A stretch of 58,524 nt of DNA, taken from assembly GCA_005889445.1 (NCBI GenBank), contig VBGS01000095.1, positions 1 to 58,524 on the forward strand, in the 5' to 3' direction. This stretch comes from Chloroflexota bacterium (GTDB lineage Bacteria > Chloroflexota > Limnocylindria > P2-11E). A program made the translations under genes and the position numbers. The notes under the pieces are model-generated. The model had not been told where the DNA came from, ran no database searches, and saw only the letters and a program-made list of their open reading frames with translations. Shown here one piece after another: positions 2,763 through 28,405 of the stretch (position 1 is the stretch's first letter; each line of letters opens with the position of its first letter).

Positions 2763-2996
2763 GTGGCCATGAGCGCGGGACAGAACGTGCGACGTGGATA
2801 CGCGTGGACCGTCAGCACACCCAAGCGGCAGGCGCACTCACCGAGCGCGGGCGCGGAGGTCATGGCGGTAATGGCCGTGGCAGCGGTGATCTTCGCGGCG
2901 TTCGCCGCGTTCACTGACCCGGTGCTCGTCGCCGCGGTCCAGCACGCAGTCGGGACCGCCTGGACGAGCGCCGCCTCGCTCCTCGGGCACCGCTAG
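2763..2996 (+). CDS. possible small membrane protein, weak call
   Basis: This is the only ORF in the 2621-3018 gap. It has a hydrophobic stretch, MAVAAVIFAAFAAFTDPVLVAAV, and GGAGG at 2855-2859 ahead of internal ATGs (2862, 2871). A hairpin plus T-tract follows it. Confidence 0.2.
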   Translation: MAMSAGQNVRRGYAWTVSTPKRQAHSPSAGAEVMAVMAVAAVIFAAFAAFTDPVLVAAVQHAVGTAWTSAASLLGHR

Positions 2997-12023: not shown

Positions 12024-13426
12024 TCGGGGAGCACGCCCTTGAGCCGCTCGCGCCACGAAGACGCGACGTCTTTAGCGACCTGCGTCGCGAGGCCGCGGTA
12101 TTCCTCGGGCCGCTCGAGGATGCGCCGCTCGTCCGGGCTGAACTTCCTCAGGTACTCGCGCAGGTCGTTGTCGAGCGTCGCCACCTCAAGGAGCGTCCGG
12201 CCGCCGCGGTCGGCCTCGATGGTGAGCCGGCGCACCGCCTCGTGCGAGTCGGGATGGCCGTACTTCGCGAGAAGAACGTAGAGCGGCTCGGCGGCGATCG
12301 CGCAACGCGACATCGCGAGATTCGCCTTCAGGCGATCGCGGTCGACGCGCATGCCGTCGAGCGAGCTCGCGAGCCGGCCCGCCGCATAGGTCGTCGCGGC
12401 GAGGATCTCGCCCAGGAAGCGCTGCGAGGCCGAGTTGGTGAGGTCGCGCTGGTGCTCGCTGATCTGGTCCATGTAGGTGGTGATCATCCGCGGCGCCATC
12501 GCCTTCCATATCGACTTCACGTTCTCGAACGAGACCGGGTTGCGCTTGTGCGGCATGGTCGACGAGCCGACTTGCTCCGCGGCGAACGACTCGGCGACCT
12601 CGCCGATCTCGCTGCGCTGCAGCTGACGCATGTCGTCGGCGAGGTTGGCCATCACGCCGAGCGCGCTGATGCAGGCGTGCGCGAGGTCGGTCCACCCTTC
12701 GGGCGGGACGATCTGCGTCGAGACCGGCGCCGCGTGAAGGCCGAGGCTCGCGAGGAAGCGGCGCTCGAGCGCGCGCGGATCATCGGCGAGCAGGGCCAGC
12801 GCGTTGAAGGCGCCGACCGCGCCCGAGAGCTTGCCGGGCAGGCGCCGGGCCGCCAGGCGCAGCTGCTCGAGGCGGTCGCCAAGACGCGCGACGTACTCGG
12901 CCATCGCGAATCCGAACGTCACCGGCTCGGCATGCCGACCGTGGGTGCGGCCGATCTGGGCGGTCTCGGCCTCGGCCTCCGCGATCGAGATGCACTTCGC
13001 GATGAGCACGGCGATGGTCGGCACCAATACCCGCTCGACGCACTCGCGGTAGCGGAGCGCGTTCGCGGTGTCGACGATGTCGTAGCTCGTCGCGCCGAGA
13101 TGGACGAACCGCTTGGCGTCGTCGGGGACCTGCGCGCGGATCACGTTCACGAGGGCGCGCACATCGTGTCGCGTGCGCGTCTCCTCCTCGGCGACCTCCT
13201 GCGCGGTGATGCGATCGGCCGCGCTCGCGATCGCGTTCGCGACCTGCTTGTCCGCGATGCCCAGGTCCGCGAGGGCCAGCGCGAGCGCGCCCTCGACGCG
13301 CGCCTGGTACTTGATCCCGGCCGCGGCGGACAGATAGGGATGAAGGGCCTTGTAGAGGACCGGGTCGCCGCCGTAGAAGCGCGAATCCAGCGGCGAGACC
13401 GTGTCGAAGCGGTTGGTGATGGTCAT
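12020..13426 (-). CDS. purB: adenylosuccinate lyase
   Basis: [19 protein letters not shown]... with the fumarate-lyase signature [14 protein letters not shown] 13426 forms an ATGA overlap with the purE stop. The 671-aa track ORF is an over-extension. Confidence 0.9.
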
Positions 13427-20039: not shown

Positions 20040-20870
20040 GTGGCTATCCGGATTGCCGCCATCGCGATCGGCGCGCTGCTTCTCGGTAGCAGCTGCGGCC
20101 CGACGGCACCTGCTCCGCGCACTCCCGATCCACTCGCGGGGACATACGTTCTCCGCGGTGGCGGTGGCGCGCTCGACGCGGTCACGGCGCTCGCCTCGGC
20201 CTTCTCGACGATCCATCCCAGCGTCCAGTTTCAAGGATTCGAGGACGTCGGGTCAGACGCGGCCGTGAAGCTCACCGCGTCCGGCGAGGCGGACCTCGGG
20301 TTCATCAGCCGCGAGCTACGCCCGGGAGAGGTATCTCAAGTGTTGACAGTGTCGATCGGCCGGTCGGGCACCGCGCTCGCCGTGAACGCGAGCAACCTTC
20401 TGCAGGGCCTCACGAAAGACCAGGTCGCCCAGATCTACACCGGTGCGATCACCGATTGGAACGACGTGGGCGGCAATGCCGGGCGGATCCGTCCGTTCCT
20501 GCGCGAGTCGGGCTCCGCGGTGCGGTCCACCTTCGAGGCCTACTTCTTTGGCGGGACGAAGCCGGTCTACGGCAAGATCGTGGCCGACGTGAACGACGCG
20601 AACGAGACGCTCAAGGCGATCTCGTCGTTCAACGGCGCGGTCGGGATGTTGAGCATGACCGCGCAGGTCTACGGCGCGCAAGGCATCCGCCTCCTCGCCA
20701 TCGACGGGATCTCGGCGACCCGAGCGAACGTCGCGAACGGGACGTACAGGGTCCTGCGTCCGCTGTATCTCGTCTACAACCCGGATCCGAGCAAGGTGAA
20801 GCCCGCCATGAAGGAGTTCCTGGACTTCGTGCGCGGTCCCGCGGGCCGCGACGTCCTCGCCGGCCTCTAG
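20040..20870 (+). CDS. PstS-family phosphate-binding protein, lipoprotein-like signal, no pstCAB nearby
   Basis: VAIRIAAIAIGALLLGSSCGP..., then ...ISRELRPGE...LTKDQVAQIYTGAITDWNDVGG...RESGSAVRSTF.... GTG 20040 has AAGGA 7 nt upstream. ATG 20010 is an alternative start. Confidence 0.7.
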   Translation: MAIRIAAIAIGALLLGSSCGPTAPAPRTPDPLAGTYVLRGGGGALDAVTALASAFSTIHPSVQFQGFEDVGSDAAVKLTASGEADLGFISRELRPGEVSQVLTVSIGRSGTALAVNASNLLQGLTKDQVAQIYTGAITDWNDVGGNAGRIRPFLRESGSAVRSTFEAYFFGGTKPVYGKIVADVNDANETLKAISSFNGAVGMLSMTAQVYGAQGIRLLAIDGISATRANVANGTYRVLRPLYLVYNPDPSKVKPAMKEFLDFVRGPAGRDVLAGL

Positions 20871-21802
20871 GCCGGGCCGAGCGCTCCCTCAGCGCGGGCG
20901 GTCATCCGCAGACCCTCAGCCAGATCCGTTCGTGGCGACCAGAGCCTGTCCCGGGCGGCCTTCGACGGGTCGACGCACCCGCGCCGAAGCTCGGCGGACC
21001 GTGGCGGCGCGCGCCGGACGCCGGGCGGCGGGCCGAGCACGGCGGTGAGGGCGCTCACGAGATCGTTGACGCTCGTCGCGACTCCGGTGCCGATGTTGTA
21101 CGTGCCCTCGTGGTCGCTGCGCAGCGCGGTCATCACCGCCTCGGCCACATCGCCGACGTAGACGTAATCACGCTGGTACCCGCCATCGCCAAAGATCGTT
21201 ATGGGCTCACGGCGCTTCCAGCACCCGATGAAGATCGCGATGACGCCTCCCTCGAGATCCCGCCGCTGCCGCGGTCCATAGATGTTCGCGAGACGCATCG
21301 TGATGGAGCGGAGCGTCGAGCGGGCGACGACGCGCTCGGCCTGCGCCTTGAATCTGCCGTAGTTCGATTGCGGATCGACGGGCACGGTCTCGTCGGCGCA
21401 GACCGGCGTTTCGCCGTAGATCGAGCCACCGGTCGAGATGTTGATGAAGTCGGTCGCGCCCATCTGTCTCGCGAGCTCGACCACGTTGTCGGTACCCTCG
21501 ACGATCACACGCCGATAGAGATCTTCCCTTTCCATCGACTCGACGACCTTCGTCTTCGCGGCGCAGTGCACGACCGCGTGGACGTGGTCTCCGGCGAGCA
21601 CGCGCCCGAGCCCGCTCATGTCCGAGATGTCGGCGACGCGCAGGTCCGCGGCCTCGTTCAGGTTCGCGCGGTCGCCCGTCGAGAGATCGTCGACGACGAG
21701 CACGCGATCGCCGCGCGCGACCAGTGCATCGACGATGTGACTTCCGAGAAATCCGGCACCGCCGGTAACGAGGACACGCAAGCCGCGACCGACTCTACTC
21801 AT
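20867..21802 (-). CDS. NAD-dependent epimerase/dehydratase (GalE-like SDR)
   Basis: VLVTGGAGFLGSHIVDAL... is the Rossmann motif, and YGRFKAQAE is the YxxxK motif. 311 aa. Confidence 0.85.
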   Translation of the reverse strand: MSRVGRGLRVLVTGGAGFLGSHIVDALVARGDRVLVVDDLSTGDRANLNEAADLRVADISDMSGLGRVLAGDHVHAVVHCAAKTKVVESMEREDLYRRVIVEGTDNVVELARQMGATDFINISTGGSIYGETPVCADETVPVDPQSNYGRFKAQAERVVARSTLRSITMRLANIYGPRQRRDLEGGVIAIFIGCWKRREPITIFGDGGYQRDYVYVGDVAEAVMTALRSDHEGTYNIGTGVATSVNDLVSALTAVLGPPPGVRRAPPRSAELRRGCVDPSKAARDRLWSPRTDLAEGLRMTARAEGALGPA

Positions 21803-21810
21803 GCGCGCGG

Positions 21811-21875
21811 TTGTCCACCGTTTGGGCCGCCGGTGGATACATGGTGGACGAATTTGGTGGAGAAGCCTGTGGACC
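21811..21875 (+). promoter_or_regulatory. cluster of five DnaA-box-like (TCCAC/GTGGA core) sites
   Basis: TTGTCCACC (21811-19), GGTGGATAC (21832-40), TGGTGGACG (21842-50), GGTGGAGAA (21856-64), CTGTGGACC (21867-75). The last four share one orientation and are spaced 10-14 bp apart. Confidence 0.45.
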
Positions 21876-21967: not shown

Positions 21968-21996
21968 TTGTCCGCATCGAACGTATGTTCGATACT
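21968..21996 (+). promoter_or_regulatory. candidate dnaB promoter with embedded LexA (SOS/Cheo) box
   Basis: TTGTCC (21968-73), 17 nt, GATACT (21991-96). The spacer holds TCGAACGTATGTTCGA (21977-21992), a perfect TCGAAC-N4-GTTCGA. The dnaB ATG is at 22005. Confidence 0.6.
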
Positions 21997-22004
21997 CTGT
22001 GTAG

Positions 22005-24587
22005 ATGACGCTCGAGACCCGGACCAACCGTCAGGTCCCGTTCGACGAGGGCGCCGAGCAGCAGGTGCTGGGAAGCCTGCTGTCGGATCGCGATGCGATC
22101 TTCAAAGTGGCGGATCTCCTCGGGGTCCAGGACTTCTACGTCCCGCGACATCAGCGCGTGTACGCAGCGGTGCAGGCGCTCCTCGAGCGGCGCGAGCGGA
22201 TCGATCCGCTCACCATCCAGGTCGAGCTGGCTCGCCGCGAGGAACTCGATCGCGTCGGCGGCGCGGCATTCCTGCGCGCGCTCACCGATGCCGTCCCGAC
22301 CGCGGTCGAGATCGAGCGGCACGCCCACGTCGTCCGCGACCGCGCGATCCTTCGCAGGCTGCTCGGCGCGGCGACCGCGATCGCCGCCGACGCCTACGAC
22401 GAGCCGACTGACATCCCGCTCGCCCTCGACCGGGCCGAGCAGCGCCTGTTCGCGCTCCGTGATGAATCCGCCAAAACGCAGCTCCGGCATATCACGGCGT
22501 CGCTCCAGACGAACTACGAGCACCTCACCGAGCGTATGGAGCGTCCCTTCGAGCTCTCGGGGATCCCCTCCGGCTTCAAGGAGGTCGACTACTACACGGA
22601 GGGCTTCACGACGGGGGACCTGATCGTCATCGCGGCGCGCCCGTCGGTCGGAAAGACGAGCCTCGCGCTGGGTATGACCTACAACATCGCGCGGCGCGGA
22701 CACCCGGTCCTGCTTTTTTCGCTTGAGATGGACACCAAGCAGATCGTCGCGCGCTTCCTCGCGCTCAACTCGCGAATGGATCTGCTCGCGATGCGGACCG
22801 GGAACATCATCGACACCGACGCCGCGGCGGCACTGCACGGCCTGCCGATCCTCATCGACGACACGCCCGGCATCTCGATCATGGAGCTGCGCACGAAGGC
22901 GCGCCGCGCGAGCACGCACGAGAAGATCGAGGTCATCGTCGTCGATTACCTCCAGCTCGTGCGAACCGGCGGTGAGGAAGAGAACCGCGTTCAGGAGATC
23001 GCGGCGATCACTCGCAATCTCAAATCACTCGCGCGCGAGTTGAACGTGGTCATCATCGGTCTGTCGCAGCTCTCGCGGGCCGCGGGCGATTCTGGAGGCG
23101 AACCGAAGCTCTCGACACTCCGCGAATGCGTAACGGCGGAAACGATCGTGTGCCTCGCAGACGGAAGGCGAATTCCCGTCTCTGAACTTGTGGGAACAAG
23201 GCCAGTGGTGTGGTCGCTCCGGAATGACCGCCTCGTCACGGCGGAGGCGGAGGCTGTCTTCGTCGTCGGGAGCAAGCCCGTTTACAAGGTCCGATTGGCG
23301 AGCGGACGGTCGATCCGCGCAACGGCCGAGCATCGCCTTCGCGGATTCGATCGGTGGCAAACCGTCGCGGAACTCAAGAGCGGTGACCGGCTCGCGATCG
23401 TCAGAAGGCTCCCGGAGCCCAATTCGACCGTCGAATGGCGCGACCCGAAGATCGGCTTTCTTGGTCAGATGATCGGCGACGGTAGCTACCTGAAGAGCGC
23501 TCCGATGCGCTACACGACGAGCTCTGAAGCAAACAGTCGCTTTGTGGCCGAAACCGCGATCGACGAGATTGGAGCCCGAGTGAAGCGATATCCGGATGTG
23601 GGCAACTGGCATCAGCTCCTAATCAGTGGAAACGGCAATCGCTGGCATCCCGCCGGTGTCAACCAATGGTTCCGACAGCTGGGGATTTTCGGACAGCGTT
23701 CGCATCAGAAGCGGGTTCCTCGCGATGCATTCGCCTTGTCAAACGAGCAGTTGAAGACGCTTCTGCGACATCTCTGGGCAACGGACGGGTCGATCAGCAT
23801 TCGCACCGGTCTTGGTGGACATGGCATGTACTACGCGACCAACAGCCCGGGGTTGGCGGCTGATGTCGCCGCCCTCCTTCTGCGATTGGAGATCGTGACC
23901 CGAACGATACGCACTGTTGAAACGCCGTACCTCCCGGGCTATCAAGTCCACATTTCGGGCACCGAGGCCCAGAGACGTTTCGTCGAGTCGGTGGGTGCGT
24001 TTGGGCCGCGGACTGAACCTGCCACCGCATTCATGGCCGTCACGGCGAACACCATTCCCAACACGAACGTCGACACGGTTCCGCGCGAGGTATTCGATGT
24101 GGTGCGCGCCCGCATGAAGCAACGACTGATCACGACGCGAGAAATGGCGCGCCTTCGTGGCACCTCGTACGGCGGATCAGGACACTTCAGCTTCTCGCCG
24201 TCACGACCGCATCTCGCCAGCTACGCGGAGCTTCTCGAGGACGACGAGCTCATGGCCCATGCGACCAATGATCTGTTCTGGGACGAGGTCATCGAGGTTG
24301 CGCCCGACGGCGAGGAGCTCGTCTATGACTTGACCGTTCCTGAGACCGAGTGCTGGCTTGCGGACGGGATCGTGAGTCACAACTCTGGCGCCCTCGAGCA
24401 AGATGCGGACATCGTGATGATGCTCTGGCGCGAAAAGGACGAGACCCCTCCCGGCGCGCCGCGGCTCATCAATGGCAGCGTCGCGAAGAACCGGAACGGA
24501 CCGACCGGGATCTTCCAGCTCCTGTTCGAGAGTGAGCAAGCCAAGTTCTTCTCGAAGGCACCCGAAGACAGCGGAGCGCCGGTATGA
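22005..24587 (+). CDS. dnaB: replicative DNA helicase DnaB, interrupted by an intein
   Basis: N-terminal domain ...VPFDEGAEQQVLGSLL..., Walker A ARPSVGKTSLAL, Walker B VVDYLQL, SQLSR, then ...KLSTLRE | intein | SGALEQDADIVMMLWRE...NRNGPTG. The extein is 441 aa. Confidence 0.9.
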   Translation: MTLETRTNRQVPFDEGAEQQVLGSLLSDRDAIFKVADLLGVQDFYVPRHQRVYAAVQALLERRERIDPLTIQVELARREELDRVGGAAFLRALTDAVPTAVEIERHAHVVRDRAILRRLLGAATAIAADAYDEPTDIPLALDRAEQRLFALRDESAKTQLRHITASLQTNYEHLTERMERPFELSGIPSGFKEVDYYTEGFTTGDLIVIAARPSVGKTSLALGMTYNIARRGHPVLLFSLEMDTKQIVARFLALNSRMDLLAMRTGNIIDTDAAAALHGLPILIDDTPGISIMELRTKARRASTHEKIEVIVVDYLQLVRTGGEEENRVQEIAAITRNLKSLARELNVVIIGLSQLSRAAGDSGGEPKLSTLRECVTAETIVCLADGRRIPVSELVGTRPVVWSLRNDRLVTAEAEAVFVVGSKPVYKVRLASGRSIRATAEHRLRGFDRWQTVAELKSGDRLAIVRRLPEPNSTVEWRDPKIGFLGQMIGDGSYLKSAPMRYTTSSEANSRFVAETAIDEIGARVKRYPDVGNWHQLLISGNGNRWHPAGVNQWFRQLGIFGQRSHQKRVPRDAFALSNEQLKTLLRHLWATDGSISIRTGLGGHGMYYATNSPGLAADVAALLLRLEIVTRTIRTVETPYLPGYQVHISGTEAQRRFVESVGAFGPRTEPATAFMAVTANTIPNTNVDTVPREVFDVVRARMKQRLITTREMARLRGTSYGGSGHFSFSPSRPHLASYAELLEDDELMAHATNDLFWDEVIEVAPDGEELVYDLTVPETECWLADGIVSHNSGALEQDADIVMMLWREKDETPPGAPRLINGSVAKNRNGPTGIFQLLFESEQAKFFSKAPEDSGAPV
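23127..24383 (+). mobile_element. DnaB intein (419 aa) with LAGLIDADG homing-endonuclease domain
   Basis: Starts with Cys (CVTAETIVCLADG). Block B is ATAEHRL. LAGLIDADG-like motifs are FLGQMIGDGSY and LLRHLWATDGSI. Blocks F and G are LVYDLTVPETECWLADGIVSHN, followed by the +1 Ser. Confidence 0.85.
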
Positions 24588-25912
24588 CGATCGCCGTCGA
24601 TCGCGGCGTCAAGCCACCGCCGGAAAAACCCGAGGCGGAGGCTTCGCTCCTGGGCGCGATGCTCATGGACGGCACGATCTACAACGAGGTAGCGCGTGGG
24701 CGCCTCGCGCCGGCGGATCTCTCCCGCGAGCAGCATCGCATCGTCCTCGGGGCGATCGCGCGCGTCGCGGATCGCAGCGAGCATGTCGGGTTCGCGACCG
24801 TGCAGGCCGAGCTCGCCGCGCGCGACGAGCTCGACGCGGTCGGCGGTCCGCAGTTCCTCGTCGGCCTCATGCAGTCCGTTCCGACGGTCGCGCACGCCGC
24901 CAGCTACGCGGCGATCGTCGAGCGGACGGCGCTGCTGCGACGGCTCATCGGCGTCGCGAACGAGATCGCACGCCTCGCGCTCACACGCGACGAGGCGAGC
25001 GCCGCGGTCGCCGACGCGCAGGAGCTGCTCTTCGCCGTGAGCGAAACGACGCTGCACCGCGACATCGTCTCGCTCGAGGTCGCGCTCCACCGCTACGCGG
25101 AGCAGATCGACCAGCGCGGCGATCAGCGCATCGGGATCAAGTCCGGGCTCGATTCGGTCGACAAACGGACCGGCGGGCTGCAGCCCTCCGACCTCATCCT
25201 CATCGCCGGTCGTCCCGGCCTGGGCAAGACGAGCTTCGCGCTCAACATCGTCGAGCATGCCGCGATCGTCGAGCGGAAGACATGCGCCTTCTTCTCGATG
25301 GAGATGAGCGAGATGCAGGTCGTGCAGCGTCTTGTGTCGATGCTCGCCGAGATCGATGGGAACCGCATGCGGCGCGGGCGCCTTTCGACGCAGGAGTTCG
25401 TCGCGATCTCGGCCGCGTCCAGCCAGCTGCAGCAGGCGCCGATCTACGTCGAGGAGTCCAACCGGCTCACGGTCACGGACATCCTCGCGAAGTCGCGGCG
25501 CCTTCAGGCCGAGCGTGGGCTCGACTTGGTCGTCATCGACTATCTGCAGCTCATCGAAGGCGTCGAGCAGGACGAGAGCCGCGTCCTCGAGGTCGCCCGG
25601 ATCAGCCGGGCGCTCAAGGCGATCGCCCGCGAGCTCGAGGTGCCGGTGGTCGCGCTCTCGCAGCTCTCGCGGCAGATCGAGCAGCGCGGGACCGAGCCGA
25701 TGCTCTCAGATCTTCGCGAAAGTGGCGCTCTCGAAGCCGACGCAGATCTCGTGATGTTCCTCTGGCAGAAGGACCGCAAGGACCGCGAAGAGGGCGTGGT
25801 GCGGCTCAAGCTCGCGAAACACCGCAACGGCCCAACCGGCGACTTCGATCTTCATTTCCAGTCCGAGCTCACGCGGTTCCGCGATCTCGGGGAGACGCGC
25901 GAAGGCGCCTAG
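24584..25912 (+). CDS. dnaB: second DnaB-family replicative helicase, no intein
   Basis: ATGA overlap with the stop of the first copy. ...PEAEASLLGAML..., GRPGLGKTSFAL, VVIDYLQL, SQLSRQIEQR, and an uninterrupted PMLSDLRESGALEADADLVMFLW...HRNGPTG. Confidence 0.9.
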   Translation: MTIAVDRGVKPPPEKPEAEASLLGAMLMDGTIYNEVARGRLAPADLSREQHRIVLGAIARVADRSEHVGFATVQAELAARDELDAVGGPQFLVGLMQSVPTVAHAASYAAIVERTALLRRLIGVANEIARLALTRDEASAAVADAQELLFAVSETTLHRDIVSLEVALHRYAEQIDQRGDQRIGIKSGLDSVDKRTGGLQPSDLILIAGRPGLGKTSFALNIVEHAAIVERKTCAFFSMEMSEMQVVQRLVSMLAEIDGNRMRRGRLSTQEFVAISAASSQLQQAPIYVEESNRLTVTDILAKSRRLQAERGLDLVVIDYLQLIEGVEQDESRVLEVARISRALKAIARELEVPVVALSQLSRQIEQRGTEPMLSDLRESGALEADADLVMFLWQKDRKDREEGVVRLKLAKHRNGPTGDFDLHFQSELTRFRDLGETREGA

Positions 25913-25915
25913 CCG

Positions 25916-26362
25916 CTACGCCGGCTCGATCGCGACGGTCACGTTGGCGCGTACATCCGGCGCCAGACGCACTTCGACGGTGTGCACGCCGAGCGTCTTC
26001 AGCGGCTCGTGAAGGGTGATCTTCGTCTTGTCGATCGGTGACCTTGCTTCCTTTGTGAGCGCGTCGGCGATCTCCTTCGTCGTCACGCTGCCGAAGGTCT
26101 TCCCCTGGTCCCCTGCCTTGAGCTTGAACACGAGCGTGACCCCACCGAGCCGCTTCGCGAGCTCCTCCGCATCGCCGTGCGCGCGGTCCTTCTTGACCTT
26201 CTCTGCCTGACGCTCCTGGGCGAGATGCTTGAGCTCGCCGCCGGTGGCCTCGATCGCCAGGCCCTTCGGCAGGAGGTAGTTGCGCGCGAACCCGTCGGCG
26301 ACGTCCTTCACGTCGCCAGGACGGCCGAGACCCCGGACTTCGGATTTGAGGATGACGCGCAT
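25916..26362 (-). CDS. rplI: 50S ribosomal protein L9
   Basis: MRVILKSEVRGLGRPGDVKDVADGFARNYLLPKGLA... 148 aa. Its stop is 3 nt from the dnaB2 stop, and the two genes converge. Confidence 0.9.
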   Translation of the reverse strand: MRVILKSEVRGLGRPGDVKDVADGFARNYLLPKGLAIEATGGELKHLAQERQAEKVKKDRAHGDAEELAKRLGGVTLVFKLKAGDQGKTFGSVTTKEIADALTKEARSPIDKTKITLHEPLKTLGVHTVEVRLAPDVRANVTVAIEPA

Positions 26363-26976: not shown

Positions 26977-27769
26977 GCACTTCCCCCTGCGGGAACCGTG
27001 CCCGCAGCGCCGCGAGCGCCTTCGCGAGCGCGGTCTCGCGGTCGGCCGCCCAGAACGAGACGAGGTACTGCGCCTTGCCGTCCTGCACGCTGCGGAGTTC
27101 GGCGCGGGCCGGGGGCTCGGGCGAGATGCCGTCGGTCTTCGCGAGGCTCGCGCGGATTTCGTCGGCGGTGATCGCCGGAGCGTCCGCGGGCAGCGCAAGC
27201 CATGCATCCACCCGGCGGGTCGGGAAGCGCGTCGTGTTCACGACCGCCGAGGTCATGAACGTGCCATTGGGGACGATGACCTGCCGACCGTCATCGGTCC
27301 GCATCTGCGTCGTGCGGAACGAGATGTCCTCGACGGTGCCCGAGAAGCCCGACACTTCGATGACATCGCCGATGTTGAACGGGCGCTCGACGAGGACCCA
27401 GGCCCCTGCGAAAAAGTTCTTCAGGATGTCCTGCAGCGAAAGACCGATGACGATCGCGACCGCGCTGAATGACCCAAGGATCCAGCCGAACGCGTCGCGG
27501 GTGTAGATCGCGACGATCCCGAGCGCCCCGATCGTGATCACGGCGATCTGTGCGACGTTGCCGATGAGGATGGTCGCGTTCCCGTAAGCGCGGTGTCGCG
27601 CAAGGGTCCGCATCGTCGCCCCGCGGATGGCGCGCGCCACGAGAAGCGTGACTGCGGCGATGACCAGGGCCCAAAAGGTCCGGGCTCCGTAGTCGAGCAG
27701 GTTCTCCCGGACGACCGCCGGGTCGAGGGGCACGGCGCGAGAATACGGGGCCGCTTGACAACTGAACAT
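26969..27769 (-). CDS. MscS-family mechanosensitive channel
   Basis: ...LQDILKNFFAGAWVLVERPFNIGDVIEVSGFSGTVEDISFRTTQMRTDDGRQVIVPNG.... The start is uncertain: ATG 27769 lies inside the lexA operator, and GTG 27733 is an alternative. Confidence 0.75.
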   Translation of the reverse strand: MFSCQAAPYSRAVPLDPAVVRENLLDYGARTFWALVIAAVTLLVARAIRGATMRTLARHRAYGNATILIGNVAQIAVITIGALGIVAIYTRDAFGWILGSFSAVAIVIGLSLQDILKNFFAGAWVLVERPFNIGDVIEVSGFSGTVEDISFRTTQMRTDDGRQVIVPNGTFMTSAVVNTTRFPTRRVDAWLALPADAPAITADEIRASLAKTDGISPEPPARAELRSVQDGKAQYLVSFWAADRETALAKALAALRARFPQGEVHG

Positions 27770-27784
27770 CTGTTCGGTTAGCCT
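27755..27784 (+). promoter_or_regulatory. lexA promoter with LexA box
   Basis: TTGACA (27755-60), then GAACATCTGTTC (27764-75) in the spacer, then TAGCCT (27779-84). The lexA GTG is at 27794, only ~10 nt downstream of the -10. Confidence 0.7.
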
Positions 27785-27793
27785 CTGACGAGC

Positions 27794-28405
27794 GTGACCA
27801 AGCAGGACCAGCAGCGGGCGGAAAAGATCCTGGCCTTCATCCGCGAGGCGGTCGCCGAGCGGGGGTATCCCCCGAGCGTCCGCGAGATCGCGGAGGCGGT
27901 CGGGCTGGCCTCCACGTCCGCCGTGCACCACCACCTCACCAAGCTCGAGAAGGAAGGCCGCCTGACCAAGGAGGCCACCAGGTCGCGGGCGCTCAGCCTC
28001 CCCGGTTCACTTGGCACAAAGGTCGTGCAGGCGCCGATCGTCGGGGAGATCGCGGCCGGCCAGCCGATCCATGCCTACGAGGACCGCTCCGAGACGATCA
28101 CCCTTCCCAGCGAGCTGTCCGCGTCGCGGGGCCGCGAGACGTTCGTGCTTCGCGTTCGCGGCAAGTCGATGATCGAGGACCACATCGACGACGGCGACTT
28201 TGTCGTCGTGCAAGAGCAGAACACCGCGCGGGACGGCGACATCGTCGTGGCGCTCCTGGAGGACAACGTGGCCACCCTCAAGCGCTTCTACAAGGAGCGC
28301 GATCGGGTGCGGCTGCAGCCGGCGAACGGCACGATGTCGCCCATCTACGCGCGCGATGTCCAGATCCAGGGAAAAGTGATAGGCGTCATCCGACGCCTCG
28401 CCTAA
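27794..28405 (+). CDS. lexA: LexA repressor
   Basis: ...GYPPSVREIAEAVGLASTSAVHHHLTKLEKEG... is the wHTH. The Ala-Gly cleavage site is in VGEIAAGQPI, and GKSM / ATLKRF supply the Ser-Lys dyad. Confidence 0.95.
   Translation: MTKQDQQRAEKILAFIREAVAERGYPPSVREIAEAVGLASTSAVHHHLTKLEKEGRLTKEATRSRALSLPGSLGTKVVQAPIVGEIAAGQPIHAYEDRSETITLPSELSASRGRETFVLRVRGKSMIEDHIDDGDFVVVQEQNTARDGDIVVALLEDNVATLKRFYKERDRVRLQPANGTMSPIYARDVQIQGKVIGVIRRLA

Follow-up and report, generated by a model that had tools for sequence, protein, structure and literature searches.

A predicted LexA operator in the putative core promoter of the tandem replicative helicase operon dnaB1-dnaB2 in a family of Chloroflexota

The stretch of DNA analyzed here (58,524 nucleotides (nt), contig VBGS01000095.1 of assembly GCA_005889445.1; hereafter, the window) comes from a metagenome-assembled genome (MAG) of a soil bacterium of the Chloroflexota (Candidatus Limnocylindria). 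It carries, in tandem, two genes for replicative helicases of the DnaB family, dnaB1 and dnaB2, preceded by a palindrome which we predict to be an operator of the SOS repressor LexA. The elements of the dnaB1 promoter and of the operon are as follows (aa, amino acids).

21968..21973, plus strand: -35-like hexamer TTGTCC (4/6)
21977..21992, strand not assigned: predicted LexA (SOS) operator TCGAACGTATGTTCGA, 0 mismatches to TCGAAC-N4-GTTCGA
21979-21990: 12-nt core GAAC-N4-GTTC of this operator
21991..21996, plus strand: -10-like hexamer GATACT (4/6), sharing 2 bases with the right arm of the box
22005..24587, plus strand: dnaB1, 860 aa, with Pfam domains DnaB_N and DnaB_C and, between them, an intein with LAGLIDADG
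23127-24383, plus strand: the dnaB1 intein with its LAGLIDADG endonuclease domain
24584..25912, plus strand: dnaB2, 442 aa, a complete DnaB helicase by Pfam, whose start overlaps the dnaB1 stop (ATGA)

The whole promoter region (21968-22007) reads TTGTCC-gca-TCGAACGTATGTTCGA-TACT-ctgtgtag-ATG. The operator fills the 17-nt spacer between the two hexamers, the last two bases of TCGAACGTATGTTCGA are the first two of GATACT, and the ATG at 22005 follows the -10 hexamer after 8 nt. Thus, the coordinates agree with the initial annotation, which had placed a box between TTGTCC and GATACT with the ATG close downstream, and a pattern search returned the 0 mismatches that it had claimed for the 16-mer. 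The start codon of dnaB1 is secure, as an in-frame TAG abuts the ATG on its 5' side, which makes a start further upstream impossible, and as the N-terminus (MTLETR) aligns with the starts of the relatives. No Shine-Dalgarno sequence precedes it. 

The perfect TCGAAC-N4-GTTCGA sequence is a single site not only in the window but in the whole assembly (2.1 Mb, 254 contigs), where about 0.05 perfect 16-mers per genome are predicted from composition (68.4% GC), and where the reversed control pattern had 0 matches. In the genome scan with a position weight matrix (PWM), this only perfect 16-mer had the second-highest score (30.3 bits; the dnaB1 site itself was included in building the matrix).

To see how far the site is conserved, we compared the regions upstream of dnaB1 in relatives, which are MAGs of Candidatus Limnocylindria from soil, groundwater and freshwater. 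Each of 25 genomes from four genera had a perfect GAAC-N4-GTTC core just upstream of dnaB1, as did each of 22 further genomes; the latter represent seven genera in this family, five of which were new to the comparison. Among the species-representative loci of the GTDB collection, the perfect core lay directly upstream of dnaB1 in 54 out of 56; in one of the two exceptions the contig breaks off 9 nt upstream of the match, and the other is an extra paralogue. In the sequence logo anchored on the core, the flanks carried less than 0.3 bit, and the N4 segment occurred in 28 forms among 54 unique sequences. Beyond the core, the conserved elements were TA at positions -2/-1, TA.A.T directly 3' of the core and, inside the N4 segment, R/Y at its inner positions, giving the clade consensus TAGAAC-RnnY-GTTCTA, followed by.A.T. 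As the core is fixed in about 55 species while its flanks and the N4 segment vary, selection on the eight core bases is beyond reasonable doubt. The description of the site as a perfect mycobacterial or Gram-positive LexA box stands, since the host 16-mer does match the TCGAAC form, but the consensus of its own clade is TAGAAC-RnnY-GTTCTA, and the host is a member of Chloroflexota and not an actinobacterium.

Outside the family the box is rare. In an order-level relative (G025), which has a tandem dnaB pair as well, TTGACC-gaTAGAACTAATGTTCG-CATGCT is located about 150 nt in front of dnaB1, and none of 12 class-level relatives outside the order had a perfect core upstream of dnaB. Neither the box nor the tandem pair occurred in the two other families of the class that were sampled. 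A perfect core was found in two of 60 regions upstream of dnaB, each 300 nt long, that were taken from 43 other Chloroflexota families. One of these (G065, locus L171) has TATAAT-a-TAGAACACATGTTCGAT, then GGAG and then ATG, in front of a single-copy dnaB, which is apparently an independent recruitment of the box to a dnaB promoter, with a transcript that would have a leader; in the other (G101) the perfect core is at -111 of dnaB. A phylum-wide trait was thus rejected on the counts of 2/60 elsewhere and 0/12 among class-level relatives. Judged from these comparisons, the dnaB box does not extend beyond the host family and G025, apart from at least one case, G065, of apparently separate origin.

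The position of the box was compared at 55 species loci. In most of them (43/55), 11-14 nt lie between the core and the start codon; a Shine-Dalgarno-like sequence was absent in 46/55, and TAnnnT directly followed the core on its 3' side in 29/55, the relatives showing TAGACT, TAGAAT or TATACT at the -10 position. At 13 loci, which belong to other genera of the family, a CTAACT or CTAAAT -10 was preceded by a perfect TTGACA at a distance of 16-17 nt. The box was thus retained across the relatives while promoter details shifted. The geometry, the missing Shine-Dalgarno sequence and the comparison with relatives indicate that dnaB1 is probably transcribed without a leader or with one of 0-2 nt. 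Such a geometry fits a leaderless transcript together with a LexA that would occlude the core promoter.

The lexA gene of the host lies in the same window, and its promoter has a palindrome of the same type.

27755..27784, plus strand: lexA promoter, with TTGACA at 27755-27760, the core GAACATCTGTTC at 27764-27775 and TAGCCT at 27779-27784
27794..28405, plus strand: lexA, 203 aa, GTG start, Pfam LexA_DNA_bind and Peptidase_S24

Here, the box (cTGAAC-N4-GTTCGg) is perfect in the 12-nt core only. It occupies the spacer, and the GTG at 27794 follows TAGCCT after 9 nt, so that the architecture which the initial annotation had described for 27755-27796 was borne out. The same promoter, TTGACA-N3-GAACATCCGTTCGG-TATGGT-N6/7-GTG or a near variant of it, was found in 29 out of 29 genomes of the family. 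The annotation had proposed a design common to the two promoters, and this proved to hold family-wide: the box lies in or beside the spacer, and 6-9 nt separate the -10 from the start codon. A palindrome in the spacer of the lexA promoter is a classic sign of autoregulation, which we predict for this gene. The host LexA aligns over its full length with Thermotoga maritima LexA (3k2z, E 1.6e-40), and, compared with solved LexA structures, it retains the Ala-Gly cleavage site as well as the Ser (in GKSM) and Lys (in LKRF) residues.

The 12-nt core is not infrequent in the host genome (27 perfect copies versus about 18 expected from composition), and most of its copies are intragenic, with a GC-rich N4. 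Cores with an AT-rich N4 and TA flanks precede uvrB and genes for an imuA-like RecA-fold protein, a radical-SAM protein, a DEAD/HRQ1-type helicase, a ligase-like protein and the Cys-rich protein of 294 aa described below. The PWM scan added sites with one mismatch in front of two uvrD-like genes and a TfoX_N gene. The presence of the palindrome in lexA promoters and before repair genes indicates that GAAC-N4-GTTC is the SOS box of this clade, and in Gram-positive bacteria the same sequence is established as the LexA motif (PMC3323433). No GAAC-N4-GTTC box, even with one core mismatch allowed, was found within 400 nt of the host recA gene (contig C150, 22456-23241), and none was found within 300 nt of recA in 11 relatives. 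The SOS regulon of the class appears to exclude recA and to include dnaB.

To our knowledge, dnaB is not a canonical LexA target in Escherichia coli or Bacillus subtilis, so that in this respect the initial annotation, which had placed dnaB outside the canonical SOS regulon, was right. Within the phylum, the LexA of Dehalococcoides ethenogenes reportedly has a Gram-positive-type box, and would thus share the motif class with the LexA of the host, but we know of no dnaB target of this protein. The placement of dnaB outside the regulon has to be qualified for Mycobacterium tuberculosis, where the dnaB promoter has a LexA motif with a sub-threshold chromatin immunoprecipitation (ChIP) signal, and where dnaB is damage-induced in a partly RecA-dependent manner (Smollett et al. 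2012, PMC3381160); dnaB is also listed among the SOS-box promoters of this bacterium (Brzostek et al. 2021, PMC8151990). The two cases are alike in that a GAAC-N4-GTTC-type motif is located at the promoter of the replicative helicase gene (Rv0058 in M. tuberculosis), and in that the DnaB protein contains an intein. They differ in that the M. tuberculosis ChIP signal was unconfirmed by the peak caller, the site there is possibly weak, and PafBC contributes to induction, whereas the site of the host is among the top-scoring ones, lies in the predicted core promoter, is conserved family-wide and in G025, and precedes a tandem pair of diverged dnaB genes. Moreover, recA appears to be outside the regulon of the host. 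In a wider comparison, the Cheo box, CGAAC-N4-GTTCG, of B. subtilis LexA (DinR) and of Actinobacteria has the same 12-nt palindromic core (PMC3323433). The likeness to Gram-positive LexA systems extends to an autoregulated lexA and to uvrB, uvrD/pcrA-like and translesion-synthesis genes as targets. In contrast to the Gram-positive box, that of the clade has TA...TA flanks (TAGAAC-N4-GTTCTA), and its targets include the replicative helicase but not recA.

Taken together, these results make it probable that the palindrome is a LexA operator placed on the core promoter of dnaB1-dnaB2, at which LexA represses transcription and from which it is removed by RecA-stimulated cleavage. With the box conserved throughout the family, it is very likely that LexA controls the dnaB operon, and the supply of helicase is very probably raised after DNA damage. 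In an undamaged cell, a LexA dimer on GAAC-N4-GTTC would keep transcription at a basal level. As the site fills the spacer between -35 and -10 and abuts or overlaps the -10, the bound repressor would compete there with RNA polymerase. Upon DNA damage, filaments of RecA on single-stranded DNA would stimulate the self-cleavage of LexA and free the promoter, and dnaB1 and dnaB2 would be induced jointly, plausibly for the reloading of helicase at repaired or restarted forks. LexA could limit but not abolish the transcription of an essential operon, whose basal supply would come from leaky repression or from a second promoter.

The operon under this presumed control is itself unusual. The extein of DnaB1 (441 aa) is a complete DnaB helicase, and dnaB1 and dnaB2 are the sole DnaB-family genes of the host genome. 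Each relative in the family likewise has exactly two such genes, and this includes genomes that are at least 90% complete. The tandem pair is restricted to the host family and G025; in class-level relatives from outside the order, dnaB is a single gene. With the product of that gene, the DnaB1 extein and DnaB2 each share about 45% identity, but with each other only 35-38%, and both keep the Walker motifs (by eye, ARPSVGKT and VVDYLQL in DnaB1, GRPGLGKT and VIDYLQL in DnaB2). The intein is present in a few genomes of the family, where the open frames are about 860-880 aa long; most relatives have an intein-less DnaB1 of about 440-475 aa. As most relatives have no intein and yet keep the box, the intein is incidental to it, and so would be the coupling of intein expression to DNA damage that the initial annotation had proposed. 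A regulation linked to the intein was rejected on the same ground, the box being kept with or without an intein in DnaB1.

Upstream of the dnaB1 promoter lie a divergent gene and a group of sequences that may bear on how the promoter is read.

20867..21802, minus strand: gene for an NAD-dependent epimerase, divergent, its start 175 nt from the box
21811..21875, strand not assigned: DnaA-box-like 9-mers TTGTCCACC, GTGGATACA, GGTGGACGA and TGTGGAC, between the epimerase gene and the dnaB1 promoter

The sequence GGTGGACAA is kept about 115-125 nt upstream of dnaB1 in relatives of the genus, and the array may be a second regulatory input to dnaB1. In the order-level relative G025, a perfect TTATCCACA occupies the corresponding position (locus L032, ~2800-2830, minus strand). 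The GC skew showed no clear origin-like switch at 21.9 kb, and dnaA is on another contig (C52).

Several observations weigh against the proposed repression of dnaB1-dnaB2 by LexA. The hexamers of the host promoter are weak (4/6 and 4/6, or 8/12), and a sigma-70 consensus scan that needs at least 9/12 called neither this promoter nor that of lexA, so that the promoter reading is based on the comparison with relatives. The promoter geometry is not uniform either, since nine of the 55 loci have a Shine-Dalgarno sequence after the box, which in these genomes would place the box at or after the transcription start. The sequencing runs that contain the locus are soil DNA metagenomes only, and in three soil metatranscriptomes, which come from the same study as one of those metagenomes and have no sampled words in common with the locus, we found scraps of 35-137 nt with 90-95% identity that belong to other organisms, and no 5' ends. 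Furthermore, tight repression of the sole genes for the replicative helicase would be lethal, which means that the repression would have to be leaky, or that an unrecognized second promoter would have to exist, for instance near the DnaA-box array. Some LexA sites of M. tuberculosis are bound without apparent regulation (PMC3381160). The weak hexamers, the essential nature of the genes, which makes strong repression implausible, and these mycobacterial sites, together with the DnaA-box-like array 100-190 nt upstream, could also be taken to mean that LexA binds but scarcely regulates or only fine-tunes dnaB1-dnaB2, and that another promoter or regulator, such as DnaA, dominates. We regard this as unlikely, because an idle site would not be expected to keep 8 out of 8 core positions in about 55 species amid drifting surroundings, and because the box has also kept its position with respect to the -10 and the start codon.

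Binding of LexA is here deduced from the sequence, and the regulon is not a textbook SOS regulon, as recA, the classic LexA target, is without a box (within 400 nt in the host and 300 nt in 11 relatives), which would suit an operator read by a different transcription factor. However, the motif is located in the promoter of lexA itself in 29/29 genomes, as is typical of autoregulation, the remaining targets are DNA-repair genes, and GAAC-N4-GTTC is the very motif established for Gram-positive LexA (PMC3323433), so that a reader other than LexA is very improbable. That cores are common in the genome, and that dnaB1 and the epimerase gene have a common intergenic region of 202 nt, would be compatible with a chance palindrome or with a box serving the epimerase gene. 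We give this almost no credence, since the conservation of the core at 54 of 56 species loci effectively refutes chance, and since the distance to the dnaB1 start is fixed at 11-14 nt, against 175 nt to the epimerase start. A terminator or hairpin was also considered for the palindrome and rejected, as no terminator-like site was found and the adjoining gene is divergent.

Replicative helicase is usually seen as a constitutive housekeeping protein; here, the sole dnaB genes sit behind what is predicted to be the box of the SOS repressor, with recA left out of the regulon, and the comparative support for this is as strong as sequence alone allows. The mechanism is not new in kind, as a published precedent exists. 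If LexA control of the operon is true, it would demonstrate that replication restart can become the center around which a LexA regulon is rebuilt, it would lend support to the weak and debated link between LexA and dnaB in M. tuberculosis, and one promoter with one box would offer a handle on the post-damage supply of helicase in abundant uncultured soil Chloroflexota. One can go further and speculate that the SOS network of the family, and of at least one order-level relative, is wired around replication restart and not around recombination, with LexA-targeted DnaB1 and DnaB2 possibly forming a mixed hexamer, a promoter that also reads DnaA, recA outside LexA control, and co-induction of the pair as the damage-inducible limiting step for helicase reloading; we consider this extended scenario doubtful.

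The end of the two-gene operon is marked by a convergent gene.

25916..26362, minus strand: rplI (ribosomal protein L9)

The stop codons of rplI and dnaB2 are 3 nt apart. The minus-strand segment 25916-27733 also contains DUF1232 and MscS-like genes upstream of rplI, the first of which diverges from the lexA promoter.

Two minor observations concern other boxes of the host genome. Near-identical N-termini of UvrD-like proteins are encoded on two contigs (C83, at 7507, and C154, at 10423), each behind a LexA box with one mismatch, which points to heterogeneous strains or to redundancy within the MAG, whose contamination is estimated at 3.8%. On another contig (C17), a box at 12088-12099 is followed after 10 nt by an open reading frame for a Cys-rich protein of 294 aa with CxxC and HHRD repeats and no Pfam hit. 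The promoter of this gene reads TTGACA-N8-GAACCTATGTTC-GATCAT-N6-GTG, and the gene, hitherto unannotated, is an SOS candidate with the same apparently leaderless LexA-type design.

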